From contig CBDBFB010000004.1 in the NCBI GenBank assembly GCA_965204505.1, forward strand, positions 107,449-171,448: 64,000 bases of DNA. The letters run 5' to 3'. Below are positions 33,282 to 35,271 of the stretch, one piece after another. The notes beneath the pieces are model-generated. The model made no database searches, was not told the DNA's origin, and saw nothing but the letters and a program-made list of their open reading frames with translations. Made by a program: the position numbers and the translations under genes. The DNA comes from an uncultured Candidatus Binatia bacterium (GTDB taxonomy: Bacteria > Desulfobacterota > Binatia > UBA9968 > JAJDTQ01). Within the stretch, counting starts at the first letter, position 1; the number at the start of each line of letters is the position of its first letter.

Positions 33282-34586
33282 TCAATAGCTGAATCTGTAC
33301 TGACGCGGCAGAACAATCCTGTGACCGGAACGTATCTCGGCGGACGGTCTCTTCTGGCCGCCACTCGGCGTCAACACCTCGATTCCCCGTTCCGTTTCTA
33401 ACGCCTTAAGGACAGTAGTGAACTGTGCCTGCGTCGCGGCCATGTCATCGGCCAACAAAGCAAGGAGCGCGTCCACTGTAGGTTCCGAACCTGGATCGAA
33501 CTGTGTCAACCGACAAGGCAAGTCCGCCATCAGGGCGTTGTGAATTCGCCCTTCGTCCGACTCGTCGAAGCCGAAATCAATAGGAATCTGATTCTCCCAG
33601 TTTGGCCTGAAACCAAGCATGTCCAGTCCCGCCTCACCTTGGGTCACGGATGCGTTCTTTATCGCCCAGTGTGCCTCGTTCATCACCAACCGGGACCGTG
33701 GAAGCTTGGAGTAGTGAACCAACCACATATCACGGCCCGCGTCCTCGGAACGGAGAAAGAACCGAGACGCAAATTTCGACCCCACATTCTCTTTGAACAA
33801 TTTGCCCAAGAGCCGGCCCGCAAAATATCGGCCGGCCTGGGCGTCCCGTTCCTTCAGAAGCGCCTGAAGGTGATCGGCGGTGAGTTCCGAAGGAGCCATC
33901 GCCGCCAGAAAGCGGGCGCTATCATTCATGTAGTCGTAAATTGCACCGAAATTGTAAGTTACAATAACCTCGGATCTGGGCAGGGATTGATAGATCAAGC
34001 GGACATCACGGTTGGGCGCATCGGTGTAGCCGCACTGATCCAAGAGGAAGATCGATCGGCCGGCAGAACTCCACGCCGAAATCTGCCGAATGATTGTTGG
34101 AAGTGCGTCCGAGGAAGCGGACTGCTGGATGGTAATGGAGTCGCGCAGGTGTTGACGGAGCTGGGCTGCACCGATGGTAGCCCTTAGGTAGTCGATTGCA
34201 TTCGAGTCATTGTCGACGAAAAAGAACTTGGCCTCGATTCTGAGTGGCTTACGACGGCCGGCATTCACCCGTGCTTCGGCGCGTCTTACAGCATCGATCA
34301 TGACCAACGGCGAGCCGGGTCGGAAGGCCCCCTCACCACGAAACAAGCCGCCGCCTGCGAAGGAATCGACCAGCGCAATACGAAGGACGTCCATTTGCGG
34401 GACAGCGCAGACCACATCGAAATAGCGGTCAAGATAGGCCTCCAGCAGACGCAACTTAGCGTCCGTATGGGATTGGATGGTTGGCGGCTCAGCGCCGGGC
34501 CGCCAAATAAATTGGCTGTTCGCAGGCGCCATCTTCCTGGCCTTTTTCGAAACCGTATGGGAAACCGTCGTGCAGTTCGCCATCAA
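33282..34586 (-). CDS. TcmP-like (three-Cys-motif partner) protein, paired with a Gp37/Gp68 protein
   Basis: 434 aa. Lies immediately downstream of, and overlapping, a DUF5131 gene, which is the arrangement described for TcmP. The family call is from context and size, and the start is possibly at Met 34532. Confidence 0.45.
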   Translation of the reverse strand: MMANCTTVSHTVSKKARKMAPANSQFIWRPGAEPPTIQSHTDAKLRLLEAYLDRYFDVVCAVPQMDVLRIALVDSFAGGGLFRGEGAFRPGSPLVMIDAVRRAEARVNAGRRKPLRIEAKFFFVDNDSNAIDYLRATIGAAQLRQHLRDSITIQQSASSDALPTIIRQISAWSSAGRSIFLLDQCGYTDAPNRDVRLIYQSLPRSEVIVTYNFGAIYDYMNDSARFLAAMAPSELTADHLQALLKERDAQAGRYFAGRLLGKLFKENVGSKFASRFFLRSEDAGRDMWLVHYSKLPRSRLVMNEAHWAIKNASVTQGEAGLDMLGFRPNWENQIPIDFGFDESDEGRIHNALMADLPCRLTQFDPGSEPTVDALLALLADDMAATQAQFTTVLKALETERGIEVLTPSGGQKRPSAEIRSGHRIVLPRQYRFSY

Positions 34587-35271
34587 GGATACGTCCTCCC
34601 GCTTTCGATGTTCTCCCTCCCCACTGCTTAAAGAAGAACTCTACTCCCTGATGTGCACACTGGTCGCGTACCTCGCGGGCCCAGTTCACATCCATTGGGC
34701 GGGCACCAGGCCCGCTCTCGCCGCCAACGATCACCCAAGCAATACCAGACAGGTCTATGGGGCCGATCTTCCCGAGAAGCGGCTCGACCGATAGAAACCG
34801 TATGGTTGCATTGGCGCGTTTGAGGTGTGCTACGCGTCCGAGCCTATGTGAATCCTCAACGGAGACTCCAATCCAGATGTGCCGCGGTACTGGGTTGTCT
34901 GGGTACCGTCGGTTGATGTAGTTGGCCAGCCTGGAACTGCGCTTGGTAAGGACCTGAAAGATATGCTGGTTGGCCCTCTCCATCACATCGAAGACCTGAT
35001 CAAGGTACGCGTTGGGAACTCTCTTGTGGAATACATCGCTCATGGAGTTGACGAAGATCATCCGGGAACGCCGCCAGTGCACCGGTTGCAATAGCCGTTC
35101 TGGTCGCAAGGTCAGGTCGAACCCGCGCTCATAGGGATGGCCCGGGACTCCACGGAAGCGCTCAGCGAAACGCTCGGCATAGCAATGATCGCAGCCAGGG
35201 CCAATTTTGGTGCAACCGGTTACAGGATTCCACGTAGCATCAGCCCACTCTATTGCAGTCTTGTCAGCCAT
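34489..35271 (-). CDS. phage Gp37/Gp68-family (DUF5131) protein
   Basis: N-terminus ...[35 protein letters not shown] is the family signature (IeWtd.TWNp..GC...S.GC..CYA). Confidence 0.8.
   Translation of the reverse strand: [260 protein letters not shown]

Follow-up and report, generated by a model that had tools for sequence, protein, structure and literature searches.

Introduction

The closest described relatives of the gene pair analysed here are the TcmP family (TIGR04474) and the DUF5131, or Gp37/Gp68, family (PF07505), whose definition is silent on function, together with the candidate "phage defence" systems PDC-M30 and PDC-M41, under which both genes are already modelled in PADLOC-DB v2.0.0 (2023). 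Full-text literature searches retrieved no functional study of the pair, in agreement with the initial annotation of this locus, which had described it as lacking an assigned function: TcmP is found in gene lists only, PDC-M30 in surveys only, and DUF5131 only as the name of a RadicalSAM.org subgroup within Megacluster-5-2 (PMC9477430). The pair under study lies in a stretch of 64,000 nucleotides from an uncultured Candidatus Binatia bacterium (contig CBDBFB010000004.1, positions 107,449 to 171,448 of the forward strand; hereafter, the window), in which the DUF5131 gene overlaps the start of the tcmP gene on the minus strand. It is a further member of this known but uncharacterised candidate family and not a new kind of system, and the defence idea attached to it is not new either. 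Taken together, the protein models, the evolutionary pattern and the genomic contexts suggest, tentatively, a two-subunit module that depends on S-adenosylmethionine (SAM), modifies nucleic-acid bases and serves its mobile element in the conflicts between phages and hosts, with a leaning towards exclusion or defence.

The DUF5131-TcmP pair of the window

The module comprises the following elements:

34489..35271, minus strand: DUF5131 (Gp37/Gp68) gene, 260 amino acids (aa), assigned by PF07505
35182..35214, minus strand: three-cysteine motif C20-x6-C27-x2-C30 of DUF5131, defined by residue conservation
33282..34532, minus strand: TcmP gene, 416 aa from the ATG at 34532 (the longest open reading frame extends to a TTG at 34586), assigned by TIGR04474
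33648..34481, minus strand: TcmP methyltransferase-like core with helical insert, aa 18-295, from an AlphaFold2 model and Foldseek
33303..33575, minus strand: TcmP C-terminal winged helix-turn-helix (wHTH), aa 320-410, from a weak PF22560 match and the model
34489..34532, minus strand: overlap of 44 nt between the DUF5131 stop and the TcmP start, with presumed translational coupling

Both open reading frames (ORFs) are present where the initial annotation had placed them (33282..34586 and 34489..35271), and profile searches bear out the Gp37/Gp68-TcmP identity that it had proposed. Specifically, the DUF5131 protein matches PF07505 with an E-value of 4.4e-97 and 324.8 bits (cutoff 28.9), its residues 4-238 covering positions 1-243 of the 243 of the model, and TcmP matches TIGR04474 with an E-value of 1.5e-47 and 162.8 bits (cutoff 53), residues 40-308 of the 434-aa ORF covering positions 2-261 of 263, which by its profile score is far above chance level. 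The partner length of 434 aa given by the initial annotation needs to be revised, as it is that of the longest ORF from the TTG. Since TcmP homologs are mostly 415-416 aa long and an AGGAAG sequence lies immediately 5' of the ATG at 34532, translation most likely begins at this ATG, yielding 416 aa and an overlap with DUF5131 of 44 nt, not 98 nt. The 44-nt overlap is identical at four related loci, namely L081, whose TcmP is 93% identical to that of the window, L160, L161, and L164. The DUF5131 ATG is preceded, 5 nt upstream, by a GAGG Shine-Dalgarno sequence, and no sigma-70-like promoter was found directly upstream of the gene.

Relative to the TIGR04474/PF07505 family, the two window genes show no difference, since both score above the model cutoffs and lie side by side with an overlap. 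Relative to PDC-M30 and PDC-M41, the component hidden Markov models (HMMs) are matched by adjacent window genes, a comparison made at the level of these HMMs: the window DUF5131 scores 328-329 bits (E-value ~1e-99) with M30B/M41B and TcmP scores 74 bits (E-value 2e-21) with M30A and 35 bits (E-value 5e-9) with M41A. The closest system is M30, whose TcmP carries a C-terminal extension. The differences lie in the modest scores of the window TcmP with the A models, which place it in a divergent TcmP clade, and in the remnant of an accessory gene, X (described below), that PADLOC does not model.

Pairing, distribution and evolution of the two genes

A scan with one genome per species provided 80 loci from many phyla. 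DUF5131 adjoins TcmP in 79 of them, the lone exception having no upstream DNA, and the pair also occurs in 22 of 23 IMG/VR viral contigs. DUF5131 is located directly upstream of TcmP on the same strand in at least 71 loci, the two genes overlapping in 37 and being spaced by no more than 30 nt in another 22 (59/71), and natural in-frame fusions of DUF5131 with TcmP exist (P0103, of 664 aa, and P0146). The pair is widespread across many bacterial phyla, plasmids, integrative conjugative elements and prophages: a TcmP alignment profile matched 3,237 cluster representatives (50% identity), and TcmP relatives are carried by 64 plasmids, including Pseudomonas aeruginosa conjugative plasmids and pSymA of Sinorhizobium meliloti. 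The commonest neighbour domains at the 80 loci belong to type IIG restriction-modification (RM) enzymes, followed by toxin-antitoxin, Uma2 and insertion sequence (IS) genes, and GmrSD, PIN/Phd and IS elements lie near other relatives. A universal third gene was considered and ruled out, because the neighbours fall into 115 Pfam families, none of which is common. DUF5131-TcmP is a self-contained, mobile two-gene unit.

The two partners evolve at different rates. Over 76 loci, the pairwise identities of DUF5131 and TcmP correlate (Spearman 0.52), and in 81% of the comparisons the higher conservation is that of DUF5131, whose mean identity is 55% against 43% for TcmP. The asymmetry is marked between the window and 13 loci linked to a type IIG enzyme (see below): the window DUF5131 is 52-69% identical to their DUF5131 proteins, whereas the window TcmP is only 30-34% identical to their TcmPs, which are 56-87% identical among themselves, indicating that TcmP has been replaced relative to DUF5131. 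Since the identities correlate overall, occasional swaps of TcmP are proposed here, not free shuffling. From these sequence identities, the pattern appears to be that of a conserved catalytic engine combined with an exchangeable specificity subunit.

Two plasmids illustrate the contexts of the pair. On pSymA of S. meliloti 1021 (NC_003037, ~1254.2-1259.9 kb; L157), it adjoins the validated defence gene hna (SMa2245; PDC-S28, 1020 bits), and because Hna is PDC-S28, at least one PDC candidate has turned out to be real. After hna, on the same strand, lies a 308-aa TcmP-like gene (PDC-M41A, 207 bits) without its own DUF5131 partner; this hna unit is convergent with the complete DUF5131-TcmP pair, which has a copy of X on its other side, and Hna and the pair may be connected in a way so far overlooked. 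On the P. aeruginosa plasmid NZ_CP124633 (3770-7287; L158), two tandem TcmP genes enclose a frameshifted DUF5131, within a conjugative-element backbone and downstream of a SNF2/DEAD helicase.

TcmP as a methyltransferase-like protein

The AlphaFold2 model of TcmP (predicted local distance difference test, pLDDT, 85; predicted TM-score, pTM, 0.87) displays a methyltransferase core of the Rossmann type, in which strand 5 is followed by a helical insert, two more strands and a C-terminal winged helix. The best Foldseek matches in the PDB are Trm1 (3axs) and RlmJ (6qe5/4blv), with E-values of 3e-7 to 7e-7 and, for RlmJ, a target-normalised TM-score of 0.52-0.58; the next matches are other class I SAM methyltransferases, mostly RNA-modifying (TYW4, Hen1, CmoA), and a comparison with viral structures retrieved generic methyltransferases only. 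In the C-terminal wHTH, three helices are followed by a beta hairpin in the model, and the sequence matches PF22560 (GMT-wHTH) weakly (E-value 0.0016), the same domain being precomputed for many homologs. As modelled, TcmP thus has a class I SAM methyltransferase fold of the RlmJ/Trm1 type plus a C-terminal wHTH.

Among 146 diverse TcmPs, K26, D165 and E188 are 100% invariant, D56-x-F-x-G-G-G is 95-99% conserved and G73-S-P75, H273 and H288-W289 are at least 93% conserved, with F105-x-D107 being conserved inside the subfamily. Motif IV reads D-Q-x-G-[YW] (D-Q-C-G-Y in the window) and, in distant members including the phage copies, D-P-x-G; it is not DPPY. Methyl transfer by RlmJ requires Y4, H6, K18 and D164, and its contacts with SAM include S100 and E118 (PMC3814359). 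A manual alignment of TcmP with RlmJ pairs K26 with K18 (motif X), DSFAGGG with DTHAGAG, PGSPL with PGSPL, D107 with E118 and LLD165QCGY with LID164PPY. RlmJ (Escherichia coli 23S rRNA m6A2030) and Trm1 (tRNA m2,2G26), the top structural matches, share with TcmP the Rossmann core with an inserted helical subdomain; in the manual comparison with RlmJ, the motif X lysine, D-x-x-A-G-x-G, P-G-S-P-L, the acidic residue of motif II and the aspartate and aromatic residue of motif IV would correspond as well. They differ in lacking a significant sequence relationship with TcmP and in motif IV, which is DPPY and not D-Q-x-G-[YW] or D-P-x-G. Moreover, RlmJ is a solitary housekeeping enzyme, whereas TcmP has an additional wHTH, an obligate cysteine-rich partner and a mobile-element lifestyle. 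On this comparison, TcmP may retain the pocket and the catalytic dyad of a base-flipping amino-methyltransferase, to which a wHTH for nucleic-acid binding would have been added.

DUF5131 as a cysteine-rich partial barrel

The AlphaFold2 model of DUF5131 (pLDDT 81) consists of a short first strand, the cysteine loop C20-x6-C27-x2-C30, a helix and six more beta/alpha units, which together form a partial TIM barrel. All 33 close homologs and all 20 highly diverse ones, among them phage copies, retain C20, C27, C30 and C205. D79, K110, E163, G183-x-E185-x-G187, K215 and W217 are also invariant in the 20 diverse proteins, and not even the phage copies deviate in G-G-E-S-G and numerous basic residues. 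With the radical SAM superfamily, the protein shares its listing by RadicalSAM.org, the location of the cysteine loop, which in the model lies between the first strand and the first helix of the barrel, as in radical SAM enzymes, and a similarity to TIGR04471, "radical SAM mobile pair protein A" (E-value 1.3e-19, below the equivalog cutoff). PDB sequence and profile searches with DUF5131 gave no match. The initial annotation had suggested looking for radical-SAM-like or metal-binding cysteine motifs by structure prediction; the model supports this to the extent of invariant cysteines in a loop of a partial barrel and does not extend it to a radical-SAM structure, so that membership of DUF5131 in this superfamily is unproven.

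Phage copies

DUF5131 occurs in 181 phage records. Since only one record has TcmP, phage DUF5131 would seem never to have a TcmP partner, but this generalisation was rejected, as divergent TcmPs are present in the Gordonia phages BaxterFox and Bosnia. Absence of TcmP holds for the loci of Che9c, Bipper, prophiT48-1, phi1026b and the Labrenzia, Microcystis and Enterocloster phages; in all of these but the last, DUF5131 is longer, with 307-386 aa. In BaxterFox and Bosnia, which are temperate, TcmP matches TIGR04474 at 175 and 125 bits, respectively, and the convergent DUF5131 and tcmP genes occupy the interval from the integrase to the immunity repressor. In BaxterFox, tcmP and the repressor gene have the same orientation and share 4 nt, an arrangement that implies expression in lysogens. 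Such a position next to the repressor is the typical home of prophage exclusion genes. In the BaxterFox genome (NC_031226; L085), the full-length DUF5131 gene at ~4013-4750 on the plus strand, whose product is 54% identical to the window protein, is unannotated; genes 40 and 41, called on the opposite strand over it, are probably miscalls, and gene 42, annotated as hypothetical, is TcmP.

None of the nine phage loci opened has DUF5131 in a morphogenesis cluster, a setting that would have spoken against the initial annotation; the gene is found in early or recombination regions or in lysogeny regions instead. In Che9c (L083), Bipper (L088) and Labrenzia vB_LagS-V1 (L090), the TcmP-less DUF5131 is immediately followed by a gene for an ASCH domain. 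ASCH domains are linked to RNA and modified-base recognition. DUF5131-ASCH may be a second recurrent partnership, in which ASCH would be functionally analogous to TcmP.

Accessory gene X and the neighbouring type IIG enzyme

Two features flank the pair downstream of TcmP:

33096..33276, minus strand: decayed remnant of gene X, ~62 frameshifted codons, detected by tblastn
28752..32171, plus strand: type IIG RM enzyme of 1139 aa, convergent with TcmP; context, outside the module

Gene X is best seen at L081, where it encodes 326 aa and begins 8 nt after TcmP, and at L170, where it is operonic and follows TcmP. At L164 it is convergent after TcmP and 77% identical to the L081 copy, the copy beside the pair on pSymA is 53% identical, and at L165, L166 and L168 it lies within ~2 kb of DUF5131. 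L169 is the only X context without the pair, so that DUF5131 accompanies X in seven of eight contexts, while few pairs carry X. No copy was detected in the 80 genome loci with the pair; X is therefore not required. The protein has no Pfam match on record and no NCBIfam, PADLOC or PDB match, and its invariant acidic and basic residues form clusters, among them ADFGG, RRxxxKxxND and IIDEDE. In the window, only its first ~62 codons persist, frameshifted, in register directly after the TcmP stop (33276-33096, minus strand; 57-69% identity in two frames by tblastn with the L081 protein). The cassette of the window therefore descends from a three-gene variant that lost X, and this copy may be weakened, X having decayed.

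Between the block of the type IIG gene and the decayed X lies a perfect 21-bp tandem duplication (32980-33021; two copies of TTTCGGCGAAAAGGACGTGAC), which straddles the stop of an orphan ORF and may be a rearrangement scar. The orphan ORF (32175-32999, plus strand, 274 aa) starts 4 nt after the stop of the type IIG gene; it has no Pfam, NCBIfam or PADLOC match and no homolog in the 13 loci that share the type IIG enzyme.

The type IIG enzyme itself matches PADLOC REase_MTase_IIG (264 bits) and the Pfam families N6_Mtase and Type_ISP_C. Homologs with 56-74% identity are found in 13 of the 80 pair loci, in metagenome-assembled genomes of several phyla, always convergent with TcmP and at distances of 45 bp to 7.7 kb. 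This recurrence made the enzyme look like a strong candidate for a third component, which the reverse test ruled out: among 64 metagenomic loci retrieved with the type IIG protein at 32-74% identity, many of which include 3-10 kb of flanking DNA, none carries DUF5131 or TcmP. The enzyme is therefore an RM system in its own right, which often shares islands with the pair without belonging to the module. The initial annotation overlooked both points, namely that most of the accessory gene X has been lost here and that the neighbouring RM gene is recurrent but independent. With type I and type IIG RM systems, the pair shares the combination of a slowly evolving catalytic partner with a fast, swapped recognition partner and the same islands, often beside a type IIG enzyme; it differs in having no recognisable nuclease or translocase, and the type IIG enzyme beside it needs no partner and is mostly found where the pair is absent.

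Proposed mechanism and alternative explanations

In the base-modifying module tentatively favoured here, TcmP and DUF5131 would act as one SAM-dependent enzyme that modifies a nucleic-acid base, with DNA favoured over RNA. TcmP, as the fast-evolving and exchangeable subunit, would bind the target, flip the base into its pocket and perhaps itself methylate it, and DUF5131, as the slowly evolving partner, would be the catalytic engine, probably with an iron-sulfur (Fe-S) cluster and possibly with radical-SAM chemistry. The role of the module would be exclusion of, or defence against, incoming phage or foreign DNA, a reading slightly favoured by the islands that the pair occupies, by its place at a prophage immunity locus and by the neighbouring hna gene on pSymA.

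Several observations weigh against this proposal. Regarding the role, neither gene has an evident effector domain, the 146 ORFs that directly flank the pair at the 80 loci, over which the 115 Pfam families are distributed, include housekeeping genes, and the pairs most closely related to that of the window are surrounded by RadC, DprA, SSB, HU and Toprim genes, which points to establishment or anti-defence more than to defence. Likewise, at the seven non-Gordonia phage loci DUF5131 lies in early or accessory regions, four of the seven being near RecE/RecT, RusA or DNA methyltransferase genes. Regarding the chemistry, a structural proof that DUF5131 is a radical SAM enzyme was not obtained: PF04055 (Radical_SAM) has no match in the protein even at an E-value of 10, and the top 50 Foldseek matches in the PDB are generic TIM barrels (best E-value 0.017) without any radical-SAM structure. 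Moreover, the cysteine spacing is CX6CX2C and not CX3CX2C, the GGE-like motif is located late in the barrel and not after strand 2, and a fourth invariant cysteine, C205, could complete a non-radical cluster or a zinc site or be catalytic. Regarding TcmP, a sequence-level proof of its RlmJ-like nature failed as well, as PDB sequence searches gave nothing relevant and hhalign against the single E. coli RlmJ sequence returned a non-significant probability of 0.5%, the residue equivalences being a manual reading; furthermore, its closest structural relatives act on RNA, not on DNA.

The contexts fit equally well a function in counter-defence, in which the pair would protectively modify the DNA of its own element, allowing it to escape restriction in new hosts, without any attack on invaders. 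The anti-phage or anti-plasmid role put forward by the initial annotation is plausible; it is not new, the pair being a PADLOC candidate already, and it is not singled out by the genomic neighbourhoods. Such self-marking is a possible explanation, though rather an unlikely one. It would account for the phage distribution, with DUF5131 in so many phage records and in early regions close to recombination and methyltransferase genes, for the relatives that reside among genes typical of the establishment regions of conjugative elements, for the methyltransferase-type residues that TcmP keeps and for the absence of a nuclease or toxin domain in either gene. It is harder to reconcile with the flagging of the pair as a defence candidate by PADLOC and with BaxterFox, in which tcmP appears to be co-transcribed with the immunity repressor and hence to be expressed in lysogens rather than at entry; in addition, the linked gene X, with its invariant acidic clusters, could be an effector, and the window copy is far from any identifiable transfer origin. 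An unlikely arrangement is one with the logic of an RM system, in which TcmP would recognise its own target and methylate it for protection, and DUF5131 would be the restriction component, a TIM-barrel nuclease dependent on metal. The composition of the pair, one methyltransferase-like protein and one metal-binding barrel, agrees with it, as do the weak Foldseek matches of DUF5131 to metal-dependent TIM barrels, the four invariant cysteines, which suit a fully ligated structural cluster or a zinc site, and the presence of solo phage DUF5131 in recombination modules, where nucleases are common. However, DUF5131 resembles TIGR04471 and is itself curated in the radical SAM superfamily, and it is the more conserved partner, whereas the nuclease of an ordinary RM system is the less conserved one; a toxin/antidote pair would be endangered by in-frame fusions and by the apparent exchange of TcmP partners, and a solo nuclease without its methyltransferase in the phage records would need a separate explanation.

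An RNA substrate (tRNA or rRNA), through which the pair would remodel host or phage translation instead of marking DNA, is likewise improbable. The best structural matches of TcmP are RNA methyltransferases (Trm1, RlmJ, TYW4, Hen1, CmoA) and an ASCH gene follows the solo DUF5131 at four of the phage loci opened, among them those of Che9c, Bipper and the Labrenzia phage, but the wHTH and the constant neighbours from DNA conflicts (RM, GmrSD, integrases) favour DNA, and the fast evolution and swapping of TcmP are hard to square with a conserved cellular RNA target. Lastly, the cassette of the window could be a functionless hitch-hiking relic that has lost its third gene and sits at a rearrangement junction, which is very unlikely. 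The reduction of X to frameshifted codons, the 21-bp duplication and the orphan ORF between the pair and the type IIG gene, and the failure to find a promoter directly upstream of DUF5131 would be expected of a relic; against it, both ORFs are intact and full length, all invariant residues are kept, Shine-Dalgarno sequences and the conserved overlap are present, and X is dispensable, given its absence from the pair-carrying genome loci.

A broader and doubtful generalisation starts from the base-modifying module and regards DUF5131-TcmP, in some cases with X, and the DUF5131-ASCH combination of many phages as a new class of nucleic-acid modification machinery. A TIM-barrel enzyme of Fe-S or radical type would be steered to a flipped base by an exchangeable reader (TcmP in bacteria, ASCH in phages), its product would be an undescribed base modification or lesion that serves as immune effector or epigenetic self-mark, and X would be the dedicated effector of the three-gene variants.

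Genomic context and other features of the window

Upstream of the pair and further along the element, the following genes were recognised:

35405..36162, minus strand: HigB-like toxin and HigA-like helix-turn-helix antitoxin, directly upstream of DUF5131 (PF05015, E-value 3e-15; PF01381, E-value 3e-12)
36182..37084, minus strand: tyrosine integrase of the carrying element (PF00589, E-value 1.3e-15)
23711..26656, minus strand: TrwC relaxase in the same low-GC stretch

The surroundings described by the initial annotation, with RM, toxin-antitoxin and integrase genes in a low-GC block, are confirmed by the type IIG enzyme, HigB/HigA and the tyrosine integrase, and by a GC content that is 0.55-0.58 at 32-36 kb and ~0.70 in the other parts of the window. 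The interval from HigB/HigA to the DUF5131-TcmP pair yielded no terminator-like site, and neither a tRNA within the window nor att-like direct repeats bounding the island were found. The plasmid collection gave no near match to the window, and a protein identical to its DUF5131 is absent from the records. The cassette of the window is an intact DUF5131-TcmP pair carried as cargo by an integrative, mobilisable element.

Additional defence-related and mobile features are scattered along the window. At 21594-23218 on the plus strand, a gene for a GmrSD_N/NsnA-like protein (PADLOC NsnA, E-value 9e-29) precedes a 204-aa ORF that matches RiboL-PSP HEPN weakly; the two probably form a further defence pair of this element. 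Beside the integrase, the C-terminal part of an ORF at 37416-37820 (plus strand) resembles TIR/nucleoside 2-deoxyribosyltransferase effectors (PADLOC TIR effector, E-value 2e-9; PF05014, E-value 1.5e-5, below cutoff), and this ORF may be a truncated defence effector. A second stretch, at 39018-39428 (minus strand), ~2 kb from the integrase at 36182..37084 and 31% identical to it, suggests by this similarity another recombinase gene or remnant. Two group II introns score above the Rfam gathering thresholds, one at 13908-16700 on the minus strand (domain D1-D4/Intron_gpII models at 16479-16700, 15428-15610, 14368-14484 and 13908-13983) and one at 53010-54970 on the plus strand (matches at 53010-53153 and 54827-54970). 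Moreover, a low-GC (0.55) gap between divergent ORFs contains two iteron-like arrays (50585-50644 and 50693-50830), made of perfect 15-bp tandem repeats, CGCTGAAGGGCGTCA and TTGGGTACCCGCTTC, which may mark the replication origin of a plasmid or conjugative element. Finally, three paralogous units of ~1 kb, 65-81% identical, occupy 56093-59390 and are followed at 59559-59822 by a 33-bp in-frame tandem repeat array of at least six copies.

Implications

For the window, the analysis provides the correct annotation of ordinary mobile-element cargo. For the family, the pair has so far had a family name and the label of defence candidate, and it is a good experimental target. The handles gained are the residues K26 and D165 of TcmP and C20, C27, C30 and C205 of DUF5131, and the three-gene form with an intact X (L081, L170); further ones are the natural fusions, suited to biochemistry, and the culturable temperate phages of Gordonia, which offer a test bed. 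If the pair is a two-subunit base-modifying enzyme, it would represent new chemistry in the conflicts among phages, plasmids and hosts, and it could become a programmable modifier of DNA or RNA.

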